64,000 nucleotides of DNA. Source: Branchiostoma floridae. Its lineage: Eukaryota. How positions within the stretch are numbered: position 1 is the first letter of the stretch; the number at the start of each line of letters is the position of its first letter. Positions 1,940-59,937 of the stretch are shown here, piece after piece. Position numbers and translations under genes: made by a program. The DNA lies in contig NC_136205.1 in assembly GCF_015852565.1 (NCBI RefSeq), positions 3,002,707 through 3,066,706 on the forward strand. Reading direction: 5' to 3'. Under the pieces are notes generated by a model that worked only from the letters and a program-made list of their open reading frames with translations, had not been told where the DNA came from and did not search any database.

Positions 1940-2115
1940 TGCTGTGATGAGCAAATGTGTCCAGGAGAAGAAAAGACGGGAGCAGGAGAAGATGTACATC
2001 GAGGAGCTGGCTGAACTCATTTCCTCCAACATGGAGAACCTGATGACCATCAAGGCAGACAAGTGTGCCATCTTACAGGAGGCTGTAAAACAGATCAAGG
2101 CTCTACGGCACCAAG
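1940..2115 (+). CDS. NCOA: NCOA/SRC p160 coactivator homolog, bHLH exon (SKCVQEKKRREQE...ELAELISSN...DKCAILQEAVKQIKALRHQ)
   Basis: Acceptor ctgtccAG at 1938-39, donor GTAGGA at 2116. Translation matches the SRC-family bHLH (EKRRREQE.KYIEELAEL). It enters with phase 2 from an upstream exon outside the window. Confidence 0.85.
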
Positions 2116-2385
2116 GTAGGACCGTTTCTCTGACCGTCTTAATCATGAAAGTACAGATGAATTAGGTACAGACCAAGTCTCCACGGCGCCAAGGTACATG
2201 TAGGACTGTTTCTCTGACCGTCTTAATCATGGGAGTACAGATAAATTAGGTACAGGTCAAACAGTTCAAGAGTCCACGGCACCAAGGTAGGACCGTATCT
2301 CTGACCGTCTTAATCATGAGAGTATAGATAAATTAGGTACAGGTCAAACAGACCAAAGCTCTACGGCTCCAAGGTAGGGAGACCG
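2090..2385 (+). repeat. Tandem array (~85 bp unit, 4 copies). It duplicates the last ~25 nt of the bHLH exon plus the 5' splice donor (CTACGGCACCAAG|GTAGGACCGTTTCTCTGACCGTCTTAATCATG...).
   Basis: GT donors recur at 2116, 2194, 2287 and 2374 with near-identical flanks. Confidence 0.8.
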
Positions 2386-3495: not shown

Positions 3496-3761
3496 CCGCC
3501 ACACTTATCGAAAAGAGTAGGGGAACTTCCCGGTGTGAGTTGATCAAACTATTCCGGCTAAATTGGGTAGGCTGGTAGGGAGTTTTCCCGAGCAGCCTTC
3601 GTAATCCCAGCTTCGCCTATTGGGTCAGTAAGTCGAAGCTCGATGTTTCTGACTTAGGAAGAAAAGATGCAGTGCTACATTGAGCGTAGTTCAGTGCCTA
3701 GAAGTGGTCAATGGCCTTGCACTGAGCAAACTCCTTAAAAAAGAATTGCTGCTGCATACAG

Positions 3762-4512
3762 TGCAGCAGCGCCACCCAGAGGTGAAGATTCATACTGCAG
3801 GATACTTGTATGTTGGAAGGGCCTTCACAGCAGTGACATCTAGAGGTGTACATGTGTACTGCAGGTTCTTGCTGCAACAACAACAACAAGAAGTTTATTT
3901 AGCAAAGTTGCCATAGGTGCAATCATGTATCTTACAGAATTCAAGCATTTTGATAGTGCTGCAGAGGTTGAATCCTTCCAGATTCAGAGTACAAGCCAAC
4001 CTGATAGGAAAAAAAACAGAAATGATATATAAAAGACATCCAAACTTAGTTTGATACACCATAAGAAGTTGAAATGTAGAAGTCAAAATGTATGGTTTCG
4101 AGTATGTATGTCTTTGAAATTTGAAAAATGACTTAGCAAATTTCAAAAGTGTTTTGTCCTGTTTCTTGCAGAGGAATCAGCAGCAAGGGAAGCAGTGCAG
4201 CAGTCTGATGTGTCGTCGAGCGGCCAGTCTCTCCTGCCTAGTAATGTGCTGGGGAATTTACTCTTAGAGGTAGGACAGTGTTTCTGGGTACAGCAGAGCC
4301 ATCTAGAGGTGAAGCTTCATACTGCAGGATATAGGAGCATAACAAGATATAGCAGTATTTTGATGATAATAACAAATTAACATTGCAGGCCAAGAGTTAA
4401 CCAAAATTAGATGCTGTTACAGTAGTAATCAGGGTTTCAGGCAGTACAGCAGTGCCCCTAGAGGTGAAACTTCATACTGAAGGAAATAGGACCATCATAA
4501 TAGGATATAGCA
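3762..4512 (+). repeat. Dispersed/tandem ~65 nt intronic repeat flanking NCOA exon 2 (CAGCAG.GCC.CTAGAGGTGAAGCTTCATACTGCAGGATA...)
   Basis: Copies at 3762-3815, 4285-4350 (immediately after the exon 2 donor) and 4440-4512. Confidence 0.7.
4172..4269 (+). CDS. NCOA: NCOA homolog exon 2 (ESAAREAVQQSDVSSSGQSLLPSNVLGNLLLE)
   Basis: AG at 4170-71 and GTAGGA at 4270. Homologous to the vertebrate SRC segment QKSDVSSTGQGVIDK...LLLEALDG. Phase fits exons 1 and 3. Confidence 0.8.
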
Positions 4513-5031
4513 GTTTAGCAGAATATAAATGATATAATTGTAGGCAAGAGTTTACCGAGATGTTATACTAAGGCCACACTGATAAGATTCAGACATTTAC
4601 CAAGTGGACAGTTGTGGATCACAGTGAGCCATCTGGGATGTGTATTGTTGGATGTGTATTGTTGGACGTGTATTGTTGGATGTGCATTGTTGGATGTGTA
4701 TAATGTTGGATGTGTATTGCAATGATTGCTGGAATGGTTACTGTCATCCCCAAGCCACCCCTCACCCCCATGTCATGCTCAAAGGAGAAAACACATTTCA
4801 ATGCAAGGTGCACCAGATGTTGGCAAAATTATAACAACAGCAATTCCAAAGTCCGTATCCGGTATTCGAATTATCGACAACGGTACACTTGGTGCATTTG
4901 AAGTGCATTCAAATTATTCAATGGATGTGATAACGGTAGAACGCCAAGTGATAACCCAAGTTACCACTAGGTCTGGAACACCTGTATTGAACATTATCAG
5001 GACATAACAATTGATTTTTTCCTGTTCACAG

Positions 5032-5810: not shown

Positions 5811-6005
5811 GCAATGGAGTGGGCTGGGCACCGGATGCCGCGGGAAAGAAGTGTCGTTCGTTCCAGTGTCGCATGATGGTGAAACTGGAAGCAGAGGAAG
5901 ACATGGAGAAACATCGCACGCAGACGCCCCAATACAAGACCATGCAATGCTCCGCTGTCTACCACCCCCACCCCACCAAGGGAAAGACTGAAGACGGCAA
6001 TGATG
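5811..6005 (+). CDS. NCOA: NCOA homolog exon 4 (GNGVGWAPDAAGKKCRSFQCRMMVKLEAEEDMEKHRTQTPQYKTMQCSAVYHPHPTKGKTEDGNDG)
   Basis: Acceptor ctttaaAG at 5809-10 and donor GTGAGT at 6006. In-phase ORF segment. Confidence 0.75.
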
Positions 6006-6287
6006 GTGAGTCTGAGGTGTTCTCACCTTCTGTTGGTGTTTTTACTTACTTAAACGAAAGAATGGTAAGTCTACTGGACCAGGTGCTCAAGGGACCAAAA
6101 CAATTTGGAGGGCAAATTGGAAAATGAAAATTTGAAATATTAGACTGGAAGTTCTTTCACAGCTGAACCTTCAAGGGAAAATGATTATTACAGAATTAAG
6201 AATTTATACACAAACAAGAAGACCTAGTCACAAGAGACCCTGTCACTTTCCTTTTGTATTACTGTTGTAATGACAGCATTAAAGTAT

Positions 6288-6330
6288 ACCAAGGGAAAGA
6301 CTGAAGATGGTAATGATGGTGAGGCTAACA
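6288..6330 (+). repeat. Echo copy of the NCOA exon 4 3' end plus donor (ACCAAGGGAAAGACTGAAGATGGTAATGATG|GTGAGG)
   Basis: Matches 5978-6012 (authentic ...GACGGCAATGATG|GTGAGT) about 300 nt downstream in the intron. Confidence 0.75.
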
Positions 6331-8653: not shown

Positions 8654-9036
8654 GTGATTTTATTTTTCATTACTCAGAGAAAGGATTAGAACACTGCACT
8701 GGGAATTTTCTATTTGGTCAGCTACAGACTGACTTAAAAACGTTGAAGTACAAGATACAATCGATTGTGTTAAACCTACTTTCCTCTCTGCTGCACTGTA
8801 CAAAACTGTCACAGCTTGCCAAGAAGGTGTTGCATAATGACATTAATGAAAACTTTTTAAAAAAAAGGAAGTAAAACCCAACAAAATTTGGAGTCAACAT
8901 TGGGACTAGACTAGCCACATTTTATATTGTTCTTCATTGACTTTGTTTTTCCACTTACTAAAGTTGCCATGAACATTCAGACAAGAATTTGCAATGACTT
9001 ATTCATTAAATGCAAGAAATTGATATTTGTGTACAG

Positions 9037-9212
9037 AGACAGCAATGTTCCCAACGTGCCTGTACAAGGGACCATGACTGACTGCATCCTCCAGTCCATC
9101 CTCGGATCCTCCAGCTACATCCCGGGCCTGTCCTCCACATCCCAACCATCTGTTACCGTGGCAACCAACACCAGCAGTCAAACCATCACTAACCTGCTCA
9201 GTGCTATGTCGG
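9037..9212 (+). CDS. NCOA: NCOA homolog exon 7 (RDSNVPNVPVQGTMTDCILQSILGSS...SQTITNLLSAMSG)
   Basis: Acceptor gtgtacAG and donor GTACGT. Phase 2-in, phase 1-out, consistent with neighbours. Confidence 0.75.
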
Positions 9213-9699
9213 GTACGTTACAGTCAAGCAGTGTTCTAGCCAGCCCCAATTTTTTTCCATCCCCTGGATTTTGAATGGAAATCCTGGCAAAGGAAACCCT
9301 GACAATCCTAGGGGGTCTGGGGGCATGCTTCATCGGGAAAAATTCTAAAATCTAAACCCTCTGAAATGCTATTTCCTTTATTTTGAGGGGCAAATTTTGC
9401 TAGTAGAGTCAGCTTGTTACAGTTAACATCTTTACATGCTGATTTTTGTCCATCATAGAGGACGGAATAGGCAAAATTATCGTCCGGCCCCAGCAGTAAA
9501 ATTCTGTCATAGGACGGAATGACGGATGCTGGATAGAACCCTGCAGTCATGAGTTATAATTCTGTATCTACCAGCTTTTGTTGGCTGATTTATTTTTTTA
9601 TGGTTAATATTATGAAAAAATAATGATCTTTTTTCATGTTGACTCTCTTAGCAGGGGCAAAATGAAGCACAAGGGTTGATAATAAAAGAGTTTTGAATA

Positions 9700-9800
9700 G
9701 ATCAAAAATTTGATTGATGACTAGCATTTTTTATCAGATTTTTCTCCCAGGTAAGGCTATGAGTGAGGTTGTTGAAGCCGACCCAATCCAAACTCATGCT
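9700..9800 (+). repeat. Echo copy of the NCOA exon 8 acceptor plus first ~40 nt of the exon (tttttctcccAG|GTAAGGCTATGAGTGAGGTTGTTGAAGCCGAC...)
   Basis: Near-identical to 9935-10000. The copy runs into a stop after 17 codons. Confidence 0.8.
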
Positions 9801-9959
9801 TGATTGACTTTATCCTTGACTCAGCAGCATGGTACATGCAAATGGCTTTCCGATCTGTATCTTTTCCAAAAAAATTCTGTTAATTTTTTTAGTACACATA
9901 GGTGTTTCAAATAGATTAGATATTTGACTAGCATTTTTCTTAAACATTTTTTCTTCCAG

Positions 9960-10327
9960 GTAAGGCTATGAGTGAAGTTGTTGAGAGCGACAAGCCACCC
10001 CAACCTAATAAACTAATGCTCGAGATGCTCATGAAGTCACCCAAGTCTTCAGAGCAGTCCAAACCAATCTTGTCCTGCGCAGATGACATCGTTGTTGCCA
10101 CGGAAACAGTTGAACGGCCCAAACCTACTTGTACAGCATCCGTCGCGCCCTCGTCCCCACCTGTGTTAGAAAAGGAACCAGAGGAAATAGAAGAGGAGAA
10201 AAAGAATGAGGATGAGGAAGAATTGCCAAGGAGCGTTGAAGTGCCTACGTCAGGTCCGGAAAAGACAACGACAACAATGACAGAGAGCAGCCCCCCGAAG
10301 TCCAGCCCGGCCGGGAGCTCTCTCACG
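9960..10327 (+). CDS. NCOA: NCOA homolog exon 8 (S/T/E-rich linker: GKAMSEVVESDKPPQPNKLMLEMLMKSPK...EEIEEEKKNEDEEEL...SSLT)
   Basis: Acceptor tcttccAG at 9958-59; the donor at 10328 (GTGATG) is weak but phase-consistent with exon 9. Confidence 0.65.
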
Positions 10328-10937
10328 GTGATGATTTGGTTTTTATTGGAACATTCAAAACAACAGTCTAGCAGTTAACTAGATGTACATGTAGTTAACT
10401 GAATTGCACTGTTCACCAACGTAATACAATTAGCACTAAGTGACTGACAAATGTTTAAGACAAATACAGCAGCTATGAAATATAACATACAATGTATCTA
10501 CAATTCCTTCACTACTGTCATTATGATAGTGCTAAGTTGTTATTGTTTAAAAATGGTGCTTGACTGCTACATTACCAATAAGAATATCAACTTGTTATAA
10601 CATTTATCACTTCTATCATTATATATCAAATTTTCTTTTCCTTTAAAATGTGAATGTCTAATGATGGAATAGAAAATTATTGCTTTTTAGGTGAGTTTCG
10701 TATGTGCTTCCTATGAAGTAATGTTATCATAAAGATAGTGACACGTTTAGCCCTACCTGATTGTATGGACTCCGAGGTTTTCTTATTATCCTATATTGTT
10801 TAATTAGTAAAATTTAAATATCTATTCTGTATTCTTTCATCTTTTTTTCTTGTAGTTTATAGTGGACCATACAAAGTCAGTGGACTTTTTGTCGTGTCAA
10901 TAAATCTCTAAAATAGACAATTTGGCTTTTTCTATAG

Positions 10938-12882
10938 GTGTGGAGTAACCTCTTCAAGGGTCACCTGCCCCTGTCCAGCCAGCAGGAGATGGTGGTGGGA
11001 GTTCTTCACCAGCTCCACTCCCGCATGCGGAACGTGGACAAACTGAAACAACATCAGCAGGAATCCCTCTCCAAGAAGTCACACGACATCTCGCGGCACC
11101 CCCGCCTGCACAGACTGCTCACGCAGGAGCTCAGTAGACCGGGTTCGTACGCGGACTTGTCGATGTTTGAGAGCGAGACGGTGTCCAGCTCCTGTGGAGA
11201 CATCCCGAATGAGGTCTTCACGAGGGAAGATAGCATGGAGTCAGAGTCGAGCGACAGCCGAAGCGGGGACGCAACTCTTCTTCACAAGCTGCTTGAAACC
11301 AGACCGTCGATGCAAAGCCAGGACACGGAGATCCCGATAACGTCTCTGGCCAGCGGCACAACTACAACCACCACGGTCACGACGCAGTCCGTGTCGAGTA
11401 TCGCCAGCCCTGCGGCCACCATGCCCACTTGGAGTACAGCTCGGTCGGGACAACAAGTTGCTGTCGTACTACCCGAGCAGCGGCATCCGCAAATGGAATG
11501 GCAGACGGACAAAGAACACGGAAAGCCTAGTGGGGAGAAGGCAGGCCCGCATAAGCCTATGCTCATGGGAAAGAACTTGGTTAGCTTATCCGAGGAGCAG
11601 AAAATTTCCGCAGACAGCACGAGCTGCGACAGCATGTCAAGAAATGTACCGAAAATGGGGAAGGCCGAACACGCAATGGGCAAAAGGCCAGGACTGCAAC
11701 CAACACCACTGAACAGACAGAACAGTGACATGTCTGTAGCTTTGAGGCAGCCCAGCTGCTCAAGTGTTAGCCCAACAGGTTCAGTTTCGTCCGCAAAGGG
11801 AATAGAGCCAACAGTTCAGGGCCTAAATCAAGGCGCTACGACGACTCCAGTTGGTGACGAGGAATTGACAGATGCTGCATTAGAGACCCCATTGCTTAGA
11901 CAGCTGCTAAGTACGGACAAACGTGGCGAGAACGACGCCGGGATGACCCCCGAAGAGAGGGAACGACAACGGAAGGAAGTGCTTCTTGAGAAGATGCTGC
12001 AAGACGATGACTCGCCAAAGACCGGTGGCACCCCCCACGTTACTGGTCAGCAGGCTACCGTCAGGATGGCGGACAGCACAAGCACAAACGGAGACCTAGA
12101 GAAGAAAGAGAAACAGGAGCAAGTCAATAAGATCTTGCAGAACCTCCTTGCTGCTACCGGCAGTGCCCCGCTAGACACCATGCCAAGCAATGTAGCCGAT
12201 TGGGACGACGAAGCTCTTCTGGATCTGATCAAGCAAGAGGGAGACAGCCTGCTGAGCAATATACAAGGCGTTGGGGTTGGTGGGAAAGGCATGACGGACG
12301 TGACGTCTAGTCAGGACACCATGCAGTTCCACACGGCAGGCGGAAACGTTGGACACGTGTCGATCATGCCTTCGTCCTTCCCTCCGGCAGCTTTACCGAT
12401 CACTGCCACCGCGGGGACGAACTTGAACATCGGCATACTCGGCTCCAACGCTTCCCAAAGACTCAATTCTGATCCGTCAAGCCAAGTTTCAAAAGGCCTT
12501 GACAACGTGGGAGTTCCGCCGAGTTTGAGCGCTGGAAGCCTACAGAACAGCGAGCAAGTCATCGCTGAGTTAGAAAACCTTCTTGGTCTCCAAGGAAACA
12601 ACAGTCTTCTCGGGACGCAGCAAGGTCCAGGAGTGAGCCGTTTTAACCAAATGGGCAGTTCTGTCATGGGTTGGTCCGACCCCCCACAGGGTGGTGATCT
12701 CGTCGCCCAGCTAGAAAGTGTTCTAAAGAGCGACAGTTCCATTCTATGTGAAATTGACCAGCTGCTCGGGATTGCGCCCTCCGCCGGCGGTGTTCCGATG
12801 ACCCCAGGGGCGGAGGGTGGGGATTTCTCCATGCTAGATGGGGGACTGGATGGTTCGCAGTCCTTTCCTCCAATGGGGCCAG
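10938..12882 (+). CDS. NCOA: NCOA homolog large exon 9 (nuclear-receptor interaction domain with three LXXLL boxes: LLHKLLE, LLRQLLS, ILQNLLA)
   Basis: The 1945 nt open frame starts right after acceptor tctatAG. The donor is GTAATA at 12883. It is S/T-rich with three NR boxes, as in SRC-1/2/3. Confidence 0.85.
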
Positions 12883-13249
12883 GTAATAATAATAGTGTTT
12901 TATTGCAAATTCATGCCTATGAGGCTAAATCAAATGCTAATGTACTAACTATGAAATTAAAAGTGATTGTACATGCATGTATGTGGGCTAATAACAAGTG
13001 AATAATCTAAATTGTAACATGGCAGTTGAAAATGAAACATCTTATATTTTCTATGATATAGGTTGATGTGATGATCTCCGTAAGAAGAGCATTTTAAAGT
13101 TTGTGTTTTTCTAGCAATGAAAAGCATGGTGTGATTTCGGATGCTTTTCAAATAGTCATTTTCCTTCAGCATGGAATCTGGGACATTCACAAATGAAATG
13201 TGTTTCCACTGCTTTCTTGTGCACTGCTTACCAATTCTCCCATGAACAG

Positions 13250-14359: not shown

Positions 14360-14587
14360 AGCAACAGCCGTCCCATGATGCCGCACACGCAGCAGCAGCT
14401 GTACAACATGCTGCAGAGGCGGCAGTCCCAGCTGCTGCTGCAACAGAGGCAGCTGCAGGCCCGGCTGGCTGCAGCCGGCGGGAACTACCGCCTCTCCAAC
14501 CTTAGCAACGAACAGCGGCTGCAGCTACAGAGGATCCAACTACAGAGGAGACAGGCCCAGGCACTGGCAGCACAGGCTCAGGCACAG
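14360..14587 (+). CDS. NCOA: NCOA homolog exon 12, Q/L-rich (QQLYNMLQRRQSQLLLQQRQLQARLAAAG...QAQALAAQAQAQ), CBP/p300-interaction-like region
   Basis: Acceptor ttttgcAG and donor GTCTGT at 14588. Glutamine-rich like the vertebrate SRC AD1/Q-rich region. Confidence 0.75.
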
Positions 14588-14749
14588 GTCTGTAGATACA
14601 TGTACAATGTAGAAAGTGGAAGTGCAAATGAAAATGAAAATGGGATGCAACAAATTTGGACAGAAAATTACACTGTCAGATAAACAGAAGAAAAATAGAT
14701 TGGCAAAAGAGAAACAGTGCAACCATTTTATCAGAGGATCCTGCTACAT

Positions 14750-14930
14750 GTACAAATGAGACAGGCCCAGGCCCTAGCATTACAGGCACAGGTCTGTAGA
14801 AAGAAAACTATCCCTCACAAAGCTCTGTCTTACAGTAGACACATAATATAAATGGTTCAGACTGAGGATCCAGTTACAGAGGTGACAGGCCCAGGCCCTA
14901 GCAGTACAGGCTCAGGCACAGGTCTGTAGA
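14750..14930 (+). repeat. Two echo copies of the NCOA exon 12 3' end plus donor (GACAGGCCCAGGC.CTAGCA.TACAGGC(TCAGGC)ACAG|GTCTGTAGA)
   Basis: Copies at 14757-14800 and 14880-14930, versus the authentic 14540-14597. Confidence 0.8.
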
Positions 14931-18357: not shown

Positions 18358-18571
18358 AACAACCAAATGAATCAGGGGAATGCAGGAGGAATGGCACAGT
18401 CGCCCTTCAACCAGCTCTTGTCCCCGACATCCTCCGGTCCTAATCAGCTCTTGTCCCCAGTGTCCTCTGGTCCAGGTCAGCTCTTGTCCCCAGTGTCCTC
18501 AGTAGCCCCCAGACCCAACTTCATGCCATCTGCTGCTACGTCGAGCAGCAGTCAGATGCAGTCATATGCTG
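18358..18571 (+). CDS. NCOA: NCOA homolog exon 17 (NNQMNQGNAGGMAQSPFNQLLSPTSSGPNQLLSPVSSGPGQLLSPVSS...SQMQSYAG), 3x QLLSP(V/T)SSGP repeat
   Basis: Acceptor ctattccAG and donor GTAAGT. Internal 30-nt tandem repeats. Confidence 0.7.
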
Positions 18572-20280: not shown

Positions 20281-20331
20281 GAGGTGATAAGAAGCAGTAG
20301 TAGTGGAAACGGAGGCAACGATGGGATGAAG
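20281..20331 (+). CDS. NCOA: NCOA homolog exon 19 (EVIRSSSSGNGGNDGMK), 51 nt
   Basis: Acceptor tgtgcgcAG and donor GTATGG. Phase 0/0 as required by its neighbours. Confidence 0.55.
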
Positions 20332-20829
20332 GTATGGACTTTTCATTGTTTCGCAGAGAAAATATTGTGCATATTATGTAGACAATATGATTGAGTTACA
20401 CATGGCATAATTAAATGAGGTGATATTGATGACTCTCACTCAGACTGTAAAAGTACACTGGGACACTATGAGTGAAATTCTAGTTGCTTTAACTAAGGAG
20501 TTAGCTGCATGATTGATCAAAAGATTTTTAGACAAAATGATCATATAACTATCATATTAAGAGAGTTGCATGCAGATCAAATGACTTTTTTATTGACACA
20601 ACAGAAGTGTTTCCACGAGGTTTTACTCTACAACTATAAATAAAATGTGTCCAGTATGCAACCATCACTGGATCTGTTCGGGTGTGACTGCTAGGCCTTT
20701 GTAATTTATGAAACGTTTAGGGGGTCTGGTCTATAAGTTTTATAAAATTTATCAGAAACACAGAGCCAAACCAATCCGATTACTATTTGTGAGCCGTGTG
20801 TATTCAACCTATTGCTATACTCTAGTATC

Positions 20830-21400: not shown

Positions 21401-24400
21401 CTGTCTGATATAGGAAACAACAGCAGTCATTTTCATGTGCATTTTATCAACTCTATACCCTACGCAATGCAGAGAGTGCAAGTTAAGGCCAGTAGCGTTG
21501 ACTTAATTAGTTCAATAATGTTTACATTGTTCTAGAGTTGTAAAGGAATGAAGCTGTATGTTTAAAGTACATATTATGTTCTTTCAGTCTGTAATAATTA
21601 TAATTACAAATTTTACATCAAGTCTTTTTAATTTCTAATTGTTATATGAAACTTCAAAGATGCTGCATAAAGGGACAACAACTAACAACTCGGGCCCAAG
21701 CTACATGTATGTTATTATACAGCCTGAATGCTCATCACCTGGTCTCAGTACTGAACATGCATTGCAAACTTTAGCAGCACGCTCAAATGTACAGTTAAGA
21801 CTGACCTACAGGAAGTAATAGTTTGACCTACAGGAAGTGAAAAAAAGGTTGACCCCGGGAATGTGAACATGAAGTCAGGAAAGACCTGCTTAAACTGGTG
21901 TGAAATTATCAACTCTTATCAATAAGAAACTGATGGCAAGTGTTGGAATAAAATTTGATTATAATATTGGAAATGCCTTGTACAAGAACACTAACTTTCA
22001 CTATGTCATAACATACATTTTGTAATGATACAAATGTAGCAACGTCAACTTAACAATTTAAGAACATGTATAAGCACAATATACAAATATGATACAAGAG
22101 GCTTTTAAACATAAATGCTGTAACATCTTAAAAAGAACTTAGAGCTCCATTTCAAGAGGGGTCCCATGTTTTGTAAATTTCTTTGATAATGATAATGTTC
22201 AACATTTATACTTTGGTGTAATCACAATGGAAGTGAAATCAATTGTTCAACATAAACAATGATCTTTCCTTTGTTTTGTCATTGATAGTTTTCATCATTA
22301 CATTTCAACAAAACAGGCAAGCATAATAAGAATCAAAATCAGCTTCATTTGTGATAACATACTGAACTAAGAGAACTCTGTACTATTAGAGTTCAATAAC
22401 TTCAACCTTTAAGAAAACACAACTAGCCGTAACTAACTTCAAATGACTAACTCAAGGGGTCAACCGCATAGTTACACTATATAACTTCCTGATGGATGTA
22501 AAATGGTACCAGGTCTAGCCATGGTATCTCTATTTTCATGAAAAATTATAAAGATCTGTCTAATATGAAACTGAAGTCAAAACCGTAGAAGAAATCCCCT
22601 TGGGCTATTCCATATTGGAAAATCAGGCAGGGGGGCATGTTAAAAAAGTTGTCTTTAATGAGTTGATATTCAGTTCCTTGTACATCTGTATGACTTAAAT
22701 TTCCCTTGATTTATGATTCTTGTCCCCCTTGCACTGATTGAATGGAGTAGCCCACAGTGTATGTGCCTGTCACCGATAGTGATATTAATGTATGCTCGCC
22801 AAATGTGTATAGTATAAGACTTTATACATTGTGTGGGTTGTTGCTGACATAGATTTCTAATACCCAACACTACCAGGTGGTTTCAGTGATGTTGGTAATT
22901 ATTCAAGTACCTTCAAGTTCTTTTAAACTGGAGATAACCTGTTATTGATTTCATGCTGTCGTTTTGTGTAGCCTATAATTATCCAAGATTGACGTTAAAA
23001 GGATACATACAGCCCTCTCTCCTATGGAGTTGCCAAAAATAGAGATGATTATCATAAGAGGATCATCTCGGATATGTTAACAGAAAGTCCAACTTTTTAT
23101 TAAGAAAAAACTAGCACACAAGAAAACTACTACAATCTCCCTGAATACTGTCTTCAGGTTGGTAAGTCGGTAGACAACAAGTTCTCTGTACACAGTCATT
23201 GCTTTAATACAGTAACCAAAATCTTTTGTAGGTATAAATGCACTGGCTGTGTACAGATATTTTTGTTACCTACCACAATCGACCACAGAATGACAAATTT
23301 TCTACCTCTTCTTTCTACAAAGTAACGCACACTAAATGTAACCTTCTTGGTCTATGTGCTCAAAGCACCTTCAATTATTAGCAAATTTCGATCATGTTTT
23401 GACTATATGTCATACAACAATAGTTATATTATTGCAATTCTATCAGCACCACAGCTGTAGTGCTTTCTCACCACTTATTGTTTTCTTTTTCTAAAGCCAA
23501 ATAACACTTAGGAAGGCCTGTTTTGCAACTTAATGTCTTCTTTTAGGCTTTTTGTATAATTGTGACATACTGAAAAGAGTTTGTTAATGAATAACATTTT
23601 CTTGAAAGATATGAAAAACTGATTTGTTGCTTATGGGGAGATGTAATGTTTTTGTTCTGTCCAAATTGTACATAAATATACATTTTAGTCCAGAACATTT
23701 GAAAAAACAATGTAGTATCACTTACTCTAGTTATTTCTGTAATAGAAATTCAAGATGAATGTTGTATGGTGATGATTTGTATGATATGTAAAACGCTTTG
23801 TAAATTTTCTTGTTTCTTATTCATAATGACAAGTCCCTCTTTAATGTTTGTGTACGTAACTCCTTTTGCTTCTCGCAATTAAATGGCACAATTCCTTGTT
23901 TGTATATATCTGTATGTACATCTTAGTAACGATTTGGAAAGTGTGTTAAGTTGACGGTACAAGAAGGAAAAAAGGAAGGCGTTAAGCTCTTGTGAGTAGA
24001 AGTCGTGATTTTTCTTTGTTCAGTGGCCATTTACTGTTAGAATTGGTTTTACAATTCGAAATACCATTGTTTGCTGTTGGTACATGCTACTAGTATCTGT
24101 TTTAATGCCCTGGTAGAAAATAATACATATCATATTCATAAGATCAGAAACTTTCATTCATATACTATCAATACCCCCATACCTTTTAGGTCCTTAGCTG
24201 TGCAATGATACATGTCATTTTTAGACCTCTTTACAAAAATCGTGTTTGATAACTAAGTTGTTGTGAAGTCTGCGTTTTGTCTTGCATATCAAGCTTTTCA
24301 TATACAACAAATTGAAGACACTGCCAAGTCCTTTCGTAATGTTTGTAAAATCTGATAACATTTTACAAAATATTGTTTCAACATTTCATTCTCATATAAG

Positions 24401-26464
24401 TCACGGCTTATGCCAGTAGATGTTTGTTGAAAGAATATGTTGGTCTTGCTGATTTTGTATATGATTGTATAGGTGTTGAGGTGTAGGCTAACAGACATGT
24501 AAGACTGCTGTGCAAGGGCTATTCAGATGAAGGTGTGTGATACTGAAGAAAAACGTCTTAACCCACTCATCCATATATAATAGGGGGAAGACTACAATGT
24601 GTCAGAATTGGTGATCCAACTTGTAGGGGTTGTGATCTGAGTCCCTGTTGACAGAGGTTCGATAAGGTAATCTCCAAGCAGATCCTAAGCTAGCATAAGG
24701 TAGTAACAAAAGCTGGGAGAGGAGTCAAGCCGGCCTAGGGTGCCAGTCTGCACGACTCCCTTTGGCCAGCTATATATACTCCTTGGCAAGCTTGGATACT
24801 GTCTTATGACACCATAGGATCTGCCTGGAGATTAATTGCCAGTACAGTTGACAACTCTATCAGTATGATTGGCAATTGTACCAGCAGTTATCCCAATTGG
24901 AGTATCTGTCAACAGACTGTATCTGATCACCATCACTACCTGTAGACTTGCCAATTCTGCCCAATTGCAGTCTCCACCGTAACATATGCTTGTACCTAAC
25001 ATATACAATCATGCATAAATGCTTCTTACTTTCACTACAATGTTTTCTCAACTTGTATTCTGACAATGTAAGAAGAAGTTGACTTAACCTACCCAGTGGT
25101 GACACATCACACTATCTAGTGAATAACGAAAACCAGTACATGCATTGTTTTGGTGAAATACTCCGTTATGGATCCTTCTGATTGTATTGTACATGTACAT
25201 GTAATTACATAATGTGTATGATTTTTTTTTCTTTCTGAAACTGTAAAACAATTTTATCTACTTGTGTACAGACGTGGTTCAAATATGCTGCCTTGAGGGA
25301 CACAGTGCCAGCTGAAGTTTTCACTAAAAGAATTATCAATGGCAATTAATAATAGCATTGTATGATGTATAAGTTAAACTTTGACATTTGATATAATCTA
25401 CATTGTATGAAGTACAAAGTCATAATTCAATCTGCATATTTGAACCACTTGCGTCTAAGACAATTTGGTTTATGATTGTTTAATATTTTCGTTTTATGAT
25501 AACTGTGTACAGTGATATTCTTCTCAATGCTATTAAAAAAAACCTATGTTAAATATAAGCTTTGTATTATTCCTTTCTCCAAAATGTAAACCAATGTAGG
25601 TTGACTTGGATCATTTAAACGTGTATAAATTGTAAAAGATGGAAAATGAAATGACTCCAGAATGGATTGTAAACATGACTGTATTAAATGTTTGTGGGCA
25701 ACAACATGTGTTTTTTTGTTGGTCGCTTGCTTTTGTCGATAACATTGTTCCCGTATATACCGTTGGCAATGTCATTTTTATCTTGGAGGCTTCAATTCTT
25801 ATAGTGTACAAACAAATGTATCCATACTCCTAGTAGATTTGTTGTTTTTGTCAAGAATGAAATGTAGTAGTGACATTTCTATTTAGACAAGTATTTGGAA
25901 TTTTGTTCGTCGTCAATTGTACTCAAGAACAGTTGTTGCAAATTTGGCAAACAGCAGAAAATTGATGCGCGCTTGGAACCCATCCTTAAATCGATGTTGA
26001 TGACCGGACAGAGAGCAAACATAAGGGATGATACATATATTTTAACACATTTTCTTACATAAGAACATCGGCAAGCAAAAAGGTGAACGCCGAATTTCGC
26101 CATGGATAGTCGTGACTGGAAACACGTATTTTGCTTTTATCTGAGTGTGGATATAAGTGCAAGAGTTAACATAGCGCTGAACTCTGAACGTCCCACTCTA
26201 CTATTACACTTTGGGCACCAGGTCTCTGTCAAGACCACTTGGGGGATTAGCTAAAACTCGCAGTGTGTTGTCTGAAGTGGTCATTGATACAGTTCCTCAG
26301 AAAAACGGAAACGTCGCGTGTTCTTAAACCACCGGTGCCCCTTTCTTCTGGATTATCGAAATGCATCAGATAGGATTATGATTACTGTAACCATTGTGCA
26401 CTGTTTCTGTATCAGATAATTATCACAAAGCAGCGTGTGCATGTCCCTGTAGCTCATCTGGAAG

Positions 26465-31500: not shown

Positions 31501-32559
31501 CCTAGTGGCTATAGTCATTTTAAGAATGTAGATTCTGAAGTAATTTTTCACCTAGTTCAAGGCGTAGGTATTGTTTTCGTTCTTTTGTTTGTTTGTTTGT
31601 TTGTTTGAAGTGATATGTGTTGAACATTGTTTCTGCTGGCCCGGCTCCAAGTTTGTTCCCGGGATGAGTTGTAACCAGAGACTAACAGGATGCGAAGACT
31701 GATCTGGCCTACTTCAGAATGTCTTAAGAAGGCAGGAAGTGAACACATGGCCAAAAGTTGGGAACCCGAGGAGGGCATGTACCCGAGAGTGTAGAATGAA
31801 ATGTGTAAATTAAACGAGGTTGTGCAATATTTTTCAAGAAATTAACAAAATCTTTCTGCTATTCATTTGTGTGTGATGTGTACAAAAAAAGTGGAATAGA
31901 GGGTGATCACCCGAAAGTAAGTCGTTGTAATCAGATCTGTGTTCTTAACGTGTGGCTACTGTCATTTGAACACTTTAGGCATGATTTGTTGATTTGCGGA
32001 GTGGTGTACAGGGTCCTTCATTTTCTGGTACTCTCTTTACCTCAATGGCTTTCATGACTCATCGATGGACCCTCAGACGGGGTCTTGTTTATGTGTTGCC
32101 ATAGCAACGGCGCCATAAGGGAGCCAGGCATAAGAGTGCTTCCTGTCACCCTAAGAAATTATAATACTGATTAATGTATATATTTTCCTGCTTTTTTGGT
32201 ACTTCCTTATAATCATCGCTCTTTGCGGCAACATGAATGATTTCCAAAACCATATCCAGTTGCTTGTCAATGAGTAACTACTATTTGTCGTAAAAGCTAT
32301 AGATGCCCAACGTTCATCGACGTATGAAAAAATTCTCTTTTCTCCACTAGCTGGAAACAAGACTCATCTTTTGATAAGTCTAGAAGTATTTTTAAATGAA
32401 GACCTATGGTCAAGTATATATATGACTCCAGTTTATTGTATGTATTTTTTAATATGTGAATATTAGGGAAAGCTATATTTCTTGCCGGTTTACAAAAGAC
32501 TTATAATAGATTACGAAGATTTCCTCCTGACCCTTATAGAAAGTCTTTGGTCGTTGACA

Positions 32560-45583: not shown

Positions 45584-46422
45584 TCACATATATACCAGTT
45601 GGCGTGGAAAGATGGTCACAGTACGGAGCTGTACGTTCGCCACCACCAACTGTCCGTCCGGCCCCATGGCAACACCAGCTGGGTTGGTAATGTTCGCGAG
45701 GGTGCGGACAAAATCCCCACGGCTTGTATACATGTCAACCGCCTCTGGTTGCAATTTCGTCACAATGATGCGACCCAAAGTGTCCAAGCAAATACCTCGT
45801 GGAATACCCGACCGTCCTTCTAGTCCAAGTGTCCTGAATGTGACTAGCCTTGCCCCGTAGCGGTTGTAGACCTGGATTTTATTCGCGGTCGATACCAAGA
45901 TGTTTCCCTCGCTGTCTGTGGTTACATATGACACGGGGAACTTTCGTCTCTCCTCAAATTTCAGATGAAGCGAGCCGTTCGACTGGTAGATCAGAACTCC
46001 ACGCATGCTGGTCACGATGACTTTGTGGTCAGTCACGCCAACTGCAATGCCAGGATTCACGGACACGAAGTTGACGTCAAACGTGAACAGAGGCTGCCCA
46101 TTGCGTCTGTACTGCACCACATGTGCTTTAACATTAATATTCTTCCTCTTCCCCACTACCCACAAATGCCCCTCTCCGTCCACGGCGACATCGCTTGGTT
46201 GCATTTTCTTCACCGCGACCCCAGGGACGATTGTTCGGAAGAAGCGGCGATAGGCTCCGCTTATGTTGTAGACATGGACCCTTCTCTTCTGGAAATCAGT
46301 CACGAAGATCTCGTTGTCAGCAGAGACAGCCACTCCACGGTGACTTCGAATTTGGTTTAGTGAGCCTCCTCCCGTCCCAACCGGGACAACCATCAGTGTT
46401 CGGTCATTAATGTCATGGGAAC
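45584..46422 (-). CDS. NPxY/NHL gene copy A, NHL-repeat beta-propeller exon (six NHL repeats, ...FVTDFQKRRVHVYN...GHLWVVGKR...VIVTSM...GNILVST...RIIVT...GQLVVAN...). Terminal exon.
   Basis: Acceptor tttcactgcAG at 46424-23 (phase 1). 269+ aa are open to the stop. NHL signatures match the TRIM-NHL/teneurin-type propeller. Confidence 0.8.
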
Positions 46423-47995
46423 CTGCAGTGAAAGGAAGAGGATGCGATCAATGATAACCTGGCCCTGGTACGAACGTTCGAACAAAGCCTGTTACAGTTA
46501 GCAAAACTAAGAAAATTTTTTCATTCGGGCAACCAGCACGACCGGATGATGATGAAAGAAATCTTAGTAATTCCCAGGAAAGAAATAATGGCTTTTTTAT
46601 GTAAACTATGCAAGTTAGGTCCGCATTTGCATATCCTGTGTCTGTTTATGTTTATGTTTATCTGCCAGAACTTACACATGTTGCATGTATAAAAGTCCTT
46701 TAGTGGGGAAAATAATAGATGGGATAATTTCCTAAATGATTATCCAAATTTATTTTTGTGTACCTCTCCCTAAGCTACTTACGTGCCAAATATTATGGAA
46801 ATTTGTTCAATTATCTCTGCATTTGCATATACTGTGTTAAACCTGCCAGAAATTACACGTTACATGTATCTAAGTCCTTCACTATGGAAAATAATAGATG
46901 AGAGGATGTCCTGATTAATCATTCAAATTTATTTGTCAGCATCTCTTCATCAGCTACCTGGGTTCCTTTGTCACCTTTTGTTCAAGTATCTCCTTGGAAA
47001 GAATAAAAACGCCCCAGCGGTTCCAGAGCAAGCTCCAGAGGTGCCCGAACCTACACTTCTTATTATATATTGACAAAAACTATCTTCCACTAAAAATCAA
47101 GACCAAAGCATGTCCAAGACAAAAGATTACCATGTGACGTGCTTGAGATTGACGACAGCGTTGGCGTTGTTATCCCAAAGGGACCACTGGCAGTCGTGAC
47201 CTAGTAAGAGAATACGAATGGTCTAATAAACGTGTGATCTAGTCAGTGTGTTTGTTTGTTTGTTTGTCTTTCTGTGCGTTCGAAGTTTTGCCGATATTCT
47301 AGCAGCATGAAAGGGGGCATGGAAGAGTTGCAGCATGGAAGGGGGAAGTGGTGTAATAGGATACTTGCAGAATTGAAAATATGGATAGGCTGCAAAACCA
47401 TGTAGCACATTACATTGTTTTGTTTGTTAAGAGACCAGATTCTGGTCTTCAGTAGCTTCAGATAGATCGTTTCCGTTAAGGGTATGAAAAAGTGATCTGT
47501 AGAAATATGAAATACGTGATCTATAACCAATAGGAAGCGTGACAAGCATTCTCTCCCACCGTTAAGTCCTCAGGGGCCTCTGACGTCATTGTCGTCCTGC
47601 CAGAAGGACAACAGATGGGGCGATCCGGGGTATGGATCGGTCTTGATTTCTGCTGTCGATGGGAGACATTGTCATAAAGTCATTGAGTCACACACTAAAG
47701 TGGTCATCTCATGAGACTGCGCCAAATTGCGCGAGGAAATTACGTAAAATGTAAAAAAAAAATCCTTTGTGGTTATACGAACGTGCGACGCAATTTCGTA
47801 TGAAGCCCATATAAGAAGATTATTGAAAAGATATTATTAAATGTATAAACTGCCCTGTTTCACGCCGCTTGCGCCTATTTTGCGAACATTTAGCAAAGGA
47901 AACTATCAGATGAAAGAGTTGGAAGAATACCAGCTGCAGGCTAGAAGTAAGAAGAGAAAGCCAAAAACAGACGGTACACGAGATCGAGAGGGTAC

Positions 47996-48120
47996 CATTG
48001 GAGCATTCGGCGTGCTGTTGTTGATGAATGCAAACTTTAAACTTCCACCGATGACCAATGACAACAGGGTAACAGCTGTACATGCGAAGACAGCAACGTA
48101 CTCCCACCGCAATTTCAAAA
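47996..48120 (-). CDS. NPxY/NHL gene copy A, candidate TM exon (VLKLRWEYVAVFACTAVTLLSLVIGGSLKFAFINNSTPNAPM)
   Basis: Acceptor cctttacAG and donor ATG|GTACCC. Phase 1-in, but phase 0-out, which does not match the NHL exon (needs 1). Usage is uncertain and possibly isoform-specific. Confidence 0.45.
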
Positions 48121-48516
48121 CTGTAAAGGCATATTTTAGGACACCGTAATACCGTCCAAAGGAAAAAATCATGATAATAGAAGTAGCATTCTTAGTGTTA
48201 GTAAACACTAAGAAAAAGGCCGCATATATGAACATTTTCTGTAAAACAGATTACGTTCTAGCTTAATGAGCAGAAAACCAACCATTGAAACTTGAAAATG
48301 ATGTTTTGAAGTGATGTTTTACTTGTAGAATTCTGTCAGTTTGTTTGATCAAACCAAAGGCACCGTGCGAGAATAGGATAAGATATGTTACATGTTACAT
48401 AGGATGCTACATTTACGTCAGGTGGAAACAAAAGTGAGTCCATTCATTTGAAAAATAAGATCGCTACCCATTACTTGAAGCCTAAGCCATGACAAGGTCA
48501 CAAAAGACAATCTTAC

Positions 48517-49732
48517 CACCAACGTTCTGTTGGGGACCGTTTTTCACGTGCATTGGTGCCTGATTTGCCTGAACGGTGCCATGTGTGATGGAGCTGCATC
48601 TTTCTGACCTGGTGGAGGTATCGTCATCCCCACCTGTGTATGCGACTGCGTAAGGTTCAATGTGGACATCGTCAGGGCTGACATCTTGCGTTCGTTCGTT
48701 CTTGGTCACGTTTCTTCTAGCTTCCATGTCTTCATCGTTCTCATACCTAACCGCATATGGTTCGATGTCGGCATTGCCAGGGATACTGCTTTGTATTTGT
48801 CCTCTCCCTATCGCATTATTACGTCTGGTAACGATGCCATCATTGTCATCATCTGTCTGGTATCTAACAGCATACGGAATGATGTTAAAACTCTCACCAG
48901 TGTCTGTTTGCCAGGAGGCAGATTTACCCGCTTCGGTGTCCCGACTTGCTTGTGGCTCAATGTCTGTATCCGCTTTGGGGTTCAGATCTTCCGCCGTTGT
49001 TTCGACAGTTCCTGATGATGTTGCAGTTCCTGATGTTATGAGGGTTGTATCCGACTCTGATGCAGGTAATGAAGGGTCAGGGGCGTACATGGGATTATGG
49101 TCGCATGATTTTGGCTGGTACCCCGAGGTGCAGTTTAGTGCGTTTTGCCCGTACATCGGATTGGGGGTTTCAGTGTCTGCGACATTTTGCGCGTACATCT
49201 GATTCCGGGCTTGGTCATTCTGGACGCATGCCGTAAGTGGATAGAGTACATTAGAGCGATGTAGAGTATTAACCGTGTTTCCGTCATTTCTAACAAGATC
49301 GATCTTAGCATCATTCTTAGTTGCATCGCATCCTTCAATGTTTGTTAAGGTGTTATCGGTGTTGTTCTGTTCAACGTAAGATTCCGTTGTTTCACTCTCT
49401 TCTGAAACTGTCTTGAAACACACCATGTGATCCTGACAAATGTAAGTAACTTTATGTGGTACAATATGGGCATCACCATGGTTACAATCGACAGTCGGGG
49501 CGATTTCATCAATAGCATCACCCTCTGTGGGGCTGCTCTCACCATCAATGTAGTCGTCGTCGCCATCTTTTTTACATCTGAGATCATATGGCCTGGTGAA
49601 GAGATCGCCATCATTGTCAGCCTGGCTGTAAGCAAGGTCAGTAGTTGTAGAATTCAGACCTGCTGGAGTCGTCTCGTCTTGCTGTAAATCTCCCGTGTTG
49701 TCACCCACTGAGACGTTGTCATCCTGTTGCAT
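48517..49732 (-). CDS. NPxY/NHL gene copy A, exon 1: acidic S/T/D-rich N-terminal region. It has 3x N(P/Q)MY motifs and 3x (I/E)PYAV(R/A)Y repeats.
   Basis: ATG at 49732 (ttatgcaacagG context). The 416-aa ORF is open to the donor G|GTAAGA at 48516-15 (phase 1). No signal peptide. Confidence 0.7.
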
Positions 49733-53130: not shown

Positions 53131-53689
53131 AGTCCTAAATAGAATGTGATGCCACAATGTCCATTCCTGCAAAAACATACTTAGCATCACTTGCACACGC
53201 ACCTACTTCCATGGCGCTCGACCAGGGTTGTAGCCAGCCTGAAATCATTTTCAGTCCCCTTGATTTTTAATGGGAATCCTATCGAGCACCGAAGGCATGG
53301 CGTGACGTTGCGCGTCATTTCTAGGGGGTCTGGGTCCCAGAAAATTTTTAAATCAAGACCCTCTGAAACACTATTTCCTGCATTTTGAGGTGCAAATTTT
53401 GCTTGTAGGCTAAGCTGTTCAATGTCATCTGTTTTGGTGAGGAAGAACACATGGGTTTCTTTTTTTTAATATCTTTACTTATCAATTTTTGTCTGTCCCT
53501 GGGGACTGAATGGGGAAATTTGTTTTCAGTCCCCAGCTGCAAAATTCCTTCAAAGGACTGAAGGACAGATGCTGGCTACAACCCTGCTCTCGACTAAGCG
53601 AACGATTAGACACCAGCCTTCCAATTCTTTCAGTATCCTTTACACCACTTACGACTTACTGAACACATTTTCGTTTTGCAACACACACA

Positions 53690-56631: not shown

Positions 56632-57642
56632 TCACTATGATTCGTCCATTACTTGAATATGCTGACATTGTTTGGTGTGGCCTTCTCGGCAAAGATTGTG
56701 ATCTTCTTGAGTCTGTCCAGATGGCCGCGGCACGAGTTTGTACCGGAGCCATGAGAGGCACTAAACATGAGAGCTTGTTAGCCGAGGTTGCATGGGACAC
56801 ACTAGCGGACAGAAGGAAAAAGCACCAGTTGATTCAGTTTTGGAAAATTATGAATGGTCTCGCACCACTGTACTTACATAATATTATCCCTCCACGTATC
56901 TGTGATACGGTCCCTTACAACCTTCGCGCAAACCAAAACCTTACTTCCATTGCCTGTAAAACTGAAAAGTATAAAAGATCCTTCCTACCTTCAACTGTTC
57001 ACTTGTGGAATGAACTGCCTACGAATGCTAAAGCCGTCCTTTCGATCAACACTTTCAAAAAAGAGCTGGACTCACTATTCAACAAGCCGACAAAATACTC
57101 CCATTTCTCTTATGGCCAAGGTCGTTCCGCAGTTCATCTTACAAGGCTCCGTCTAAACTTCAGTCAGTTAAACTACCATCTATTTCAACACCATTGTATT
57201 GATTATCCTACATGTAAATGCGGCTATCATTGTGAAACAACCGAACATTATCTACTACACTGCACACTCTATACTAGCCAAAGAAGTTCTTTGTTATCGG
57301 CTGTCTCAAATATTATAGTAGACCTAAAGCACCTCAACGACACTACTTTATGTACTTTACTGTTATCAGGATCAACATCTCTCTCACATCAACAGAACTG
57401 TAACATTTTTGATCTTGTCATTACCTATATCCATTGTACAGGCAGGTTCTCCTAATTGATTCAGCACCAACTTGTCTTGTTTAAATTTATTTTTCTGTTA
57501 TCCATTTTGTACTTATGTATGTAATGTCGTTTACTATTCTTGTTTTATGCGTATGTTTCTTGAGTAGAAGGCTTAATATAAGCAATTTGTGCTTTCCGCC
57601 TCATACTCGCAAAATATATGTGAATAAAATAAAATAAATAAA
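56632..57642 (+). mobile_element. 5'-truncated non-LTR retrotransposon (LINE). It keeps the ORF2 C-terminal tail with a CCHC motif and an (AAATAA)n 3' end, flanked by ~18 bp target-site duplications.
   Basis: ORF 56637-57455 translates to the conserved LINE ORF2 tail (LLEYADIVWCG...ESVQMAAARVCTGAMRGT...LADRRKKHQLIQFWKIMNG...CKCGYHCETTEHYLLHC). The TSDs are AACTGTCGATGGTATGTC at 56613-56630 and AACTGTCGATGGTACGTC at 57643-57660. Confidence 0.8.
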
Positions 57643-59565: not shown

Positions 59566-59812
59566 GTAAGATTGTCTATTGTGGCCATGTGCATATAACG
59601 GCTTAGACTTTGCGTAATGGACATCTATCTTACTTGCTCTAATGAAAGTGTCAACTTTTGTCAAAACCTGATGTGAATATAACAAAGCAAAAAATTTAAT
59701 ATCTGAGGCCTTTTGCTTTACTAGCACTGTAATCTTTAATACTACTTCTTTATCATTTTGATTTTTTTTTCCTTTGGATGTTATTATGGTGTCCTAAAAT
59801 ATGCTTTTACAG

Positions 59813-59937
59813 GGTTGCAAGTTCGATGGAAGTACGTCGCTGTCCTCATATGCACAGCTGCTGCCCTGTTGTCATTGGTCATTGGAGGAAGTTTAAGTTT
59901 CGCATTCATCAACAACAACACGCCGAATTCTCCTATG
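59813..59937 (+). CDS. NPxY/NHL gene copy B, candidate TM exon (LQVRWKYVAVLICTAAALLSLVIGGSLSFAFINNNTPNSPM)
   Basis: Acceptor gcttttacAG and donor ATG|GTACGC. Same phase problem as copy A. Confidence 0.45.

Follow-up and report, generated by a model that had tools for sequence, protein, structure and literature searches.

Why should an intron of a lancelet NCOA/p160 coactivator gene carry, little more than 200 nt ahead of the 3′ splice site of exon 8, a second sequence that looks like that splice site together with the start of its exon, and is this second site put to any use? The original prediction, made from the sequence alone, had described a "tandem echo" of an acceptor plus exon start. 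Having analysed the window (the whole stretch of DNA, 64 kb in length), we find that the echo is a lineage-specific local copy of the junction, and propose that it is probably no more than a redundant, decaying pseudo-acceptor without demonstrated function.

The host gene is an NCOA/p160 coactivator gene, lying on the + strand of the window from ~1.9 kb to ~19.2 kb. The Pfam domain PF23172 (bHLH_NCOA) is found at 1947-2115 (E=2.8e-16), and LXXLL boxes lie in a large exon at 10938-12882, with LHRLL, LLHKLL and LLRQLL visible in the translation. A full-scan search of representative proteins with exon 8 found the orthologue P0002, a Branchiostoma NCOA2-like protein of 1937 aa, while word-indexed protein searches with the exon 8 peptide, the large LXXLL exon and the bHLH exon gave nothing useful. 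According to its source records P0002 is LOC144908258 of a "Branchiostoma floridae x Branchiostoma ..." hybrid assembly, and it falls into one 90%-identity cluster with P0006, whose source name is [quoted passage not shown]. Two orthologous loci were available for comparison, one from the B. belcheri-type haplotype of the hybrid assembly (GCA_019207075.1) and one from B. belcheri itself (GCA_001625305.1); they represent one outgroup lineage, and the products of both carry PF23172 and PF14598. Around the echo the gene is laid out as follows.

9037 to 9212, + strand: exon 7 (window numbering), with donor CGG|GTACGT and a phase 1 end, placed by tblastn match, gene model and orthologue alignment.
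9213 to 9959, + strand: intron 7, 747 nt, which contains the echo.
9903 to 9959, + strand: authentic 3′ splice-site region, with a TGAC branch-like site (A at 9927), a pyrimidine tract at 9948-9956 and CAG at 9957-9959.
9960 to 10327, + strand: exon 8, 368 nt (122 codons and 2 nt), starting GTAAGG, with donor ACG|GTGATG and a phase 0 end.

The label "exon 8" is sound for the coding exons that fall within the window, of which it is the eighth; the orthologue has a further one ~10 kb upstream, beyond the window. The exon 7 stretch at 9019-9215 aligns with 20296-20493 of the GCA_019207075.1 locus at 90%, and exon 8 shares 87% amino-acid identity with residues 426-544 of P0002 and 80% nucleotide identity with the GCA_019207075.1 locus. 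The open frame of exon 8 is in phase with both neighbouring exons, the next of which begins at 10938, and it opens at 9960 with the donor-like hexamer GTAAGG to which attention had been drawn. When joined, exons 7 and 8 read ...LLSAMS-G-KAMSEVVES..., and since the junction ...SAMSG|KAMSEVVES is found in 6/6 orthologue proteins (five isoforms of the hybrid-assembly gene and one B. belcheri protein), the acceptor at 9959|9960 is the authentic one, as had been supposed. Intron 7 also contains a dispersed-repeat fragment at 9339-9543, and an inverted repeat matching at 16/17 positions (9933-9949 / 10449-10465) flanks exon 8.

Two further features are needed to describe the duplication itself.

9690 to 9803, + strand: the echo, which reproduces in diverged form the final ~57 nt of intron 7 and the opening ~60 nt of exon 8.
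9804 to 9902, + strand: the spacer between the copies, ~100 nt of unique sequence with no other copy in the window or the GCA_019207075.1 locus.

The echo is a diverged direct copy of 9903-10020 that spans a branch-site block, a polypyrimidine tract, CAG and the exon start. A repeat search returned a core of 44 nt (9739-9782 and 9948-9991, 89%, spacing 209), and an upstream block (9708-9746 and 9915-9953) includes TGACTAGCATTTTT, identical at 14/14 positions. The gapped local alignment spans ~9690-9798 and 9903-10009, and extends to 9801/10020 when the orthologous exon is used as a guide. Its score of 82 compares with 17.6±2.3 (maximum 35) in 1000 shuffles. The alignment thus confirms that the acceptor and exon start are duplicated, within a few bases of the predicted 9745-9800 and 9951-10000, and that the copy takes in the motif preceding the acceptor. 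This is an intragenic local duplication spanning an exon-intron junction, in direct orientation and beyond chance, with one of its copies lying over the real junction.

By blastn there is no third copy of the echo in the 64-kb window, only the two, and in both orthologous loci its sole counterpart is exon 8 itself. When metagenome contigs were scanned for the exact pattern of the repeat core, nothing matched. We rejected an origin from a dispersed repeat or transposon, for the echo and the spacer alike, as the 64-kb window contains no further copy of either. The word "tandem" is less well founded. The period is 209-213 nt, whereas similarity is clear over ~110 nt, and the spacer resembles the rest of exon 8 only marginally (p=0.04-0.1), for which reason we do not favour a strict head-to-tail duplication of a 209-nt unit. 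Since TRF finds no tandem array at the echo and the spacer is unique, the echo is a local direct duplication of ~110-120 nt and probably not a clean head-to-tail tandem; what stands of the original prediction is a true local direct duplication within the NCOA gene, but the copies are separated by ~100 nt of unrelated sequence. We also rejected a mutually exclusive exon pair arising from tandem exon duplication, since only ~60 of the 368 nt were copied and the echo has an 8-nt deletion and a stop.

Within the echo the following signals can be recognised.

9718 to 9731, + strand: the TGACTAGCATTTTT block, identical at 14/14 positions to 9925-9938, with a branch-site-like TGAC whose A at 9720 is 30 nt before the AG.
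9736 to 9737, + strand: an extra AG in the pyrimidine tract, reading TTATCAGATTTTT in the echo and CTTAAACATTTTTT in the authentic copy, which is without the AG.
9739 to 9750, + strand: polypyrimidine tract and CAG forming the pseudo-acceptor, with AG at 9749-9750.
9751 to 9756, + strand: GTAAGG directly after the AG, which together with CAG resembles a recursive splice site, YnCAG|GTAAGG.
9763 to 9768, + strand: a second donor-like site, TGA|GTGAGG, which would bound an in-frame 12-nt microexon at 9751-9762 (+KAMS).
9801 to 9803, + strand: TGA in frame with exon 7, which would be met after use of the echo acceptor without further splicing.

The branch-site consensus is yUnAy, and on this basis TGAC in the echo block is a putative branch site. 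The extra AG at 9736-9737 may affect the choice of 3′ splice site. On a crude PWM made from human consensus frequencies, which is good only for ranking sites within this gene, the echo acceptor (AG 9749-9750) scores 3.45 and the authentic acceptor (AG 9958-9959) 3.38, both within the top 0.5% of the gene's 1242 AGs, and the donor CAG|GTAAGG that follows either AG scores 5.5, within the top 0.2% of 994 GTs. On the same within-gene ranking, exon 7 joined to either copy would present CGG|GTAAGG at 4.3, compared with a median of 2.88 for 17 model donors and with 2.88 for its own donor CGG|GTACGT, while the exon 8 donor ACG|GTGATG reaches 0.91. The internal TGA|GTGAGG of the echo at 9763 scores 0.34 versus -2.71 for the homologous TGA|GTGAAG of the real exon; GTGAGG is also present in the orthologues at the position homologous to 9763, and the real exon now has A at +5. 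For the motif YYYYNYAG|GTAAG, 0.34 occurrences would be expected in the window and 3 are present, two of them being the authentic site and the echo, the latter reading TTTTTCTCCCAG|GTAAGG. The RNA around the two copies has no unusually stable structure relative to shuffles (z=+0.73), and on that ground we dropped the idea that a structure masks or selects one of the acceptors. Rfam gave no match over the whole window.

When did this copy arise? The exons of the gene align to the orthologous loci at 77-92% and the introns are mostly unalignable, the end of authentic intron 7 giving a weak alignment to its orthologous counterpart (p=0.007). In both loci exon 8 begins GTAAAGCTATGAGTGAGG after a pyrimidine tract and CAG, and the belcheri-type junction site, CAG|GTAAAG, is weaker (2.46 on the PWM, again for ranking only). 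Neither locus has an echo in its intron 7, the best score of its own junction against its own intron being 24 (GCA_019207075.1) and 16 (GCA_001625305.1), compared with 82 in the window. The echo and the real copy differ by ~15%, while the neutral divergence between the window and the belcheri type is p=0.447 (JC 0.68) at 333 four-fold sites. The window thus represents a lancelet species distinct from the belcheri type. The absence of the echo from both loci, together with ~15% against 0.68, indicates that the duplication is lineage-specific and younger than the split from the B. belcheri lineage, and these values would put its age at roughly 0.2-0.5 of the age of the split.

A four-way alignment, in which the orthologues served as outgroup, polarised the changes since copying. 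An ancestral GAG survives in the echo and has become GAA in the real exon, and the echo is without a 3-nt insertion that the real exon carries as its own; it thus preserves in part the exon sequence as it was at the time of copying. Changes specific to the echo are the 8-nt frame-breaking deletion and 3-4 substitutions, those specific to the real exon number 3-5, and the AG at 9736-9737 has been newly acquired in the echo. These outgroup-polarised counts are balanced, with no difference in rate between echo and real exon, and since neither copy is clearly slower there is no evidence of constraint on the echo. Its splice signals are nevertheless intact amid the surrounding decay, from the branch block through the pyrimidine run (with only a C/T change) to CAG and GTAAGG. 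Furthermore, the first 24 exon-derived nt hold 0 echo-specific changes, and 5/6 intronic differences between echo and real copy fall within a linker of ~10 nt. While the intact signals could hint at constraint, tests of this clustering gave p≈0.06-0.09 and were post hoc, and with the polarised counts balanced we do not claim selective constraint on the echo.

The pattern of changes also bears on whether the duplication could be an artefact of assembly, for instance through the two haplotypes of a highly heterozygous animal having been placed one after the other. Heterozygosity is very high in lancelet genomes, and several small junction echoes occur in this gene with none in the orthologue, as an artefact might produce. 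The two copies, however, differ by ~15% with several indels and have ~100 nt of unrelated sequence between them, there are no N runs nearby, and the retention of ancestral states that have been lost from the real exon is the pattern of an old paralogous copy and not of an allele. We therefore regard an artefact as very improbable.

If the echo acceptor were used, several outcomes are predicted from the signals described above. The 209 nt between the two acceptors could be retained, in which case translation would stop at 9801 and the transcript would probably be subject to nonsense-mediated decay (NMD). The original prediction of a stop after 17 codons holds in this case, the frame reading G|GT AAG GCT ATG ... 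GCT and then TGA at 9801-9803, but only without further splicing; similarly, its isoform with a premature stop would result if the 209 nt were kept, and is one of several predicted outcomes, alongside re-splicing at GTAAGG and the microexon ending at the 9763 donor. It is also possible that GTAAGG would be re-spliced to the authentic acceptor to give the normal mRNA, an outcome favoured by donor strength: because the echo starts CAG|GTAAGG its splicing could be corrected in this way, and because CGG|GTAAGG (4.3) outranks the exon 7 donor (2.88) on the within-gene PWM a second step could take out the remaining 209 nt. The 9763 donor could be used as well, adding KAMS, and so could the new AG at 9737, with a shift of frame as the consequence.

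The first of these outcomes could have been put to use, with the echo serving as a regulated "poison" acceptor at which the 209 nt and their stop would be kept so that NMD tunes NCOA dosage. Its acceptor equals the real one in strength, its in-frame stop comes after 17 codons, and this stop lies >50 nt upstream of many later junctions. Like pseudoexons, decoy splice sites and poison exons in general, the echo is intronic, has good splice signals and would give a premature stop if used. Functional decoy or poison exons, however, are usually conserved, whereas the echo is a recent copy of a junction, absent from the sister lineage. Since it is also decaying at the same pace as the poorly constrained start of the real exon, and since the regenerated strong 5′ splice site would make retention of the 209 nt unlikely, we think it quite unlikely that the echo is a regulated acceptor.

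The second outcome raises the question of recursive splicing. Recursive splice sites and RS-exons have been described by Sibley 2015 and Blazquez 2018 (PMC6224609) and by Joseph 2021 (PMC8605326). On paper, the anatomy of the echo is that of a ratchet point with a cryptic RS-exon (cf. PMC8605326), and a working site would allow intron 7 to be removed as 9213-9750 and then 9751-9959, aiding or regulating the recognition of exon 8. As in ratchet points, an acceptor and a donor of the tract-AG|GTRAGT type are juxtaposed both in the echo and at the authentic exon start, and the exact TTTTTCTCCCAG|GTAAGG juxtaposition belongs to a motif with 3 matches against 0.34 expected. GTGAGG at +12 could define the cryptic RS-exon, and with the echo's own donor the stronger (5.5 versus 0.34 on the within-gene ranking) the donor strengths match the splice-donor competition rule of PMC8605326; the survival of the splice signals amid decay also speaks for use. 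Against this, described recursive sites lie in very long introns of tens of kb (PMC8605326, PMC6224609) and intron 7 has only 747 nt. Ratchet-point motifs are, moreover, described as ultraconserved (PMC8605326), whereas that of the echo is missing from both belcheri-type orthologous loci. The echo has this motif only because the copied exon happens to start with GTAAGG, coding for G-K. On balance it seems unlikely that the echo is a working recursive splice site.

The authentic exon 8 itself appears to fit the definition of a "putative RS-exon", in which the exon-exon junction reconstitutes a 5′ splice site (PMC6224609), although the value here is a rough PWM score of 4.3 and the published criterion is MaxEntScan. 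With a strong 3′ splice site and a weak 5′ splice site of its own (0.91 on the PWM), it has the asymmetry of EJC-sensitive RS-exons. Unlike them, its skipping would shift the frame, and because of these 368 nt recursive skipping of exon 8 would be unproductive.

The third outcome would make the echo an alternative microexon of 12 nt (9751-9762), yielding the in-frame, species-specific isoform ...SAMSG-KAMS-KAMSEVV.... A crude gene finder did insert such an exon, its 12 nt preserve the reading frame, and its donor TGA|GTGAGG has G at +5 where the real exon has A (0.34 versus -2.71 on the within-gene PWM). That gene finder, however, favours any short segment that keeps the frame and lies between good splice sites. 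The microexon has a weak donor (A at -1), which should be outcompeted by the far stronger GTAAGG 12 nt upstream. No doubled KAMS was found in any orthologue protein (0/6). We consider such a microexon improbable.

The closest known kind of event is internal gene duplication. Intragenic segmental duplications that include splice sites are said to have been described by Gao & Lynch in PNAS in 2009, a study cited in PMC3443670. Like these, the NCOA echo is a short direct duplication over an exon-intron boundary that is lineage-specific and recent and leaves redundant splice signals; unlike them, it yields no visible new intron or coding sequence and its copies lie ~100 nt apart. An intragenic duplication that leaves a redundant splice site is thus of an already known kind, and the NCOA echo is a further instance.

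A related process is intron gain by tandem duplication of an exonic segment containing AGGT (the Rogers model), which has been shown experimentally (Hellsten et al. 2011, PMC3265369) and reviewed (PMC3443670). Both copies at the NCOA locus contain AG|GT (CAG|GTAAGG), and since the duplicated unit contains this sequence, the upstream GT and the downstream AG bound 209 nt that would be precisely spliceable, restoring the original message. The upstream copy, however, lies in an existing intron, with stops in all frames upstream of 9750, and we rejected intron gain because that copy is intronic: exon 7 has already ended at 9212 and no frame is open there. At most, the echo makes an existing intron removable in two steps; it creates no new intron.

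Small local direct repeats are common here, with 19 families in the 64 kb, 8 of them in the NCOA gene, so that one more local repeat is unremarkable. Half of those in the NCOA gene (4/8) include a splice junction.

2085 to 2378: 3.5 units of ~86 nt, starting in the bHLH exon.
5975 and 6288: a second repeat over a junction.
9718 and 9925: the echo itself (with the core at 9739).
14527, 14731 and 14861: a repeat in three places, over a junction.

None of the four is found in the GCA_019207075.1 locus, and 0 of ~11 repeat families in that gene touch a junction. This contrast (Fisher 0.018, post hoc) might point to something more systematic. Set against the junction density of so compact a gene, however, 4/8 is not significant (binomial p=0.11-0.19), and we do not claim that echoes are enriched at exon junctions. 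We think it unlikely that the echo is in use, be it as the 12-nt KAMS microexon or as a young functional recursive splice site within a short intron; were it so, the four junction echoes would reflect a process that favours the copying or retention of splice junctions.

The reading we prefer, a lineage-specific copy that has become a redundant pseudo-acceptor, can be set out as a sequence of steps. After the split from the B. belcheri lineage, some 110-120 bp comprising the branch block, the tract and CAG together with ~60 nt from the start of exon 8 would have been copied ~210 bp upstream within the same intron, most likely by replication slippage or by repair synthesis from a local template. 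The copy would have been tolerated as the downstream authentic acceptor still yields normal mRNA. Any transcript spliced to the echo would acquire CGG|GTAAGG, a strong 5′ splice site, where exon 7 meets the echo, and the authentic branch site and acceptor could then serve to excise the remaining 209 nt as a short intron, while transcripts that were not corrected would carry the premature stop and be degraded by NMD. Re-splicing of this kind could be a simple reason why a duplicated strong acceptor was tolerated at birth. Against harmlessness, an acceptor that equals the real one and is transcribed first ought to be costly if used uncorrected. Since its origin the redundant pseudo-acceptor would have decayed at an about neutral rate, and it is most probably an ordinary neutral leftover and not a working part of the gene.

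The NCOA echo is a clean natural case, open to dating, of a duplication that has placed a complete second set of 3′ splice signals beside the real one. Owing to the GTAAGG that opens the copied exon, the additional site also has the makings of a recursive splice site from the outset, which suggests one way in which such duplications can be tolerated at birth and one way in which a single event could give rise to ratchet points or microexons. For annotation, the echo is a place where gene prediction may go astray and report a spurious microexon or acceptor. On its own the echo is a small and probably neutral mutation, which matters only if the site is used. If a process that copies splice junctions were indeed at work in this gene, it would be a route to the birth of recursive sites, microexons and new intron boundaries.

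In the NCOA gene, the + strand NCOA/p160 coactivator gene of the window, donor sites are repeated at the bHLH, PAS-region and Q-rich exons, and these repeats are listed here together with the other repeats, duplications and ORFs.

Repeats, duplications and ORFs in the window
2085-2380: tandem array of approximately 3.5 units of approximately 86 nt, starting inside the bHLH exon, 30 nt short of its end
3761-3804, 3825-3868, 4288-4331 and 4430-4514: short repeat family within the introns flanking the second exon
5975-6013 and 6288-6326: 39-nt echo pair (92%), the echo lying 313 nt downstream
9339-9543: dispersed-repeat fragment inside intron 7
9933-9949 and 10449-10465: 17-nt inverted repeat (16/17) flanking exon 8
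14527-14596, 14731-14800 and 14861-14930: three-copy repeat, the unit being the final 62 nt of the Q-rich exon plus GTCTGTAGA
18409-18500: in-exon coding repeat, NQLLSPTSSGP / NQLLSPVSSGP / GQLLSPVSS
45584-49732 (- strand) and 58314-62479 (+ strand): inverted duplication of a gene pair
56637-57455: 272-aa ORF between the two gene-pair copies

At the Q-rich exon, both intronic echoes come after an AG, the likeness stops 9 nt beyond the GT in all three copies, and the homologous frame of the third (14861-14930) contains a stop. The unit at the PAS-region exon is made up of the final 31 nt of the exon plus GTGAGTCT; the likeness ends 8 nt beyond the GT, and the two exonic differences between the copies are both synonymous. 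A second strong donor, ATG/GTAAGT at 6065, lies 60 nt (in frame) downstream of the first. In the array at the bHLH exon the donor CAAG/GTAGGA is copied in every unit. Neither this array nor the Q-rich exon repeat is present in the orthologous locus of GCA_019207075.1, a hybrid assembly with a belcheri-type haplotype at this locus.

The upstream arm of the inverted repeat around exon 8 (9933-9949) follows the authentic branch site and precedes the pyrimidine tract, within the stretch where the echo of the acceptor and the real copy differ. The RNA fold of the two acceptor copies covered 9690-10000, with the downstream arm at 10449-10465 lying outside it. Further upstream, the fragment in intron 7 is 85% similar to window positions 53341-53408. 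In the B. belcheri NCOA locus (GCA_001625305.1), its similarity to other introns, at 24362-24558 and 32253-32457 of the locus, is 75-88%. The short repeat family has the pattern ...CAGCAG.GCCA.C.AGAGGTGAAG.TTCATACTGCAGGATA, with further copies in introns of the GCA_019207075.1 locus, and is probably a small mobile element.

The coding repeat varies in unit number, with more units in the belcheri-type orthologue than in the window. The duplicated gene pair consists of an NHL-repeat ORF (Pfam NHL) and an acidic ORF of 416/430 aa that has no Pfam match, and the translations of the two copies, judged by eye, look highly similar. The 272-aa ORF between them also has no Pfam match and, on visual inspection, resembles the remnant of a retroelement.

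Two adjacent NCOA introns, 10328-10937 and 12883-13249, are missing in both belcheri-type orthologues, where one 2.4-kb exon corresponds to window exons 8, 9 and 10. An 8-nt direct repeat, CAGGTAAT, flanks the intron at 12883-13249; terminal inverted repeats were found in neither intron, and there is no further copy of either in the window. The 610-nt intron absent from the belcheri lineage contains, on the coding strand at 10683-10696, a recursive-site-like motif in which CTTTTTAG is directly joined to GTGAGT; across the whole window this type of motif has one match against 0.08 expected. The difference in the two introns may represent either two gains in the window lineage or a joint loss in the belcheri-type lineage.
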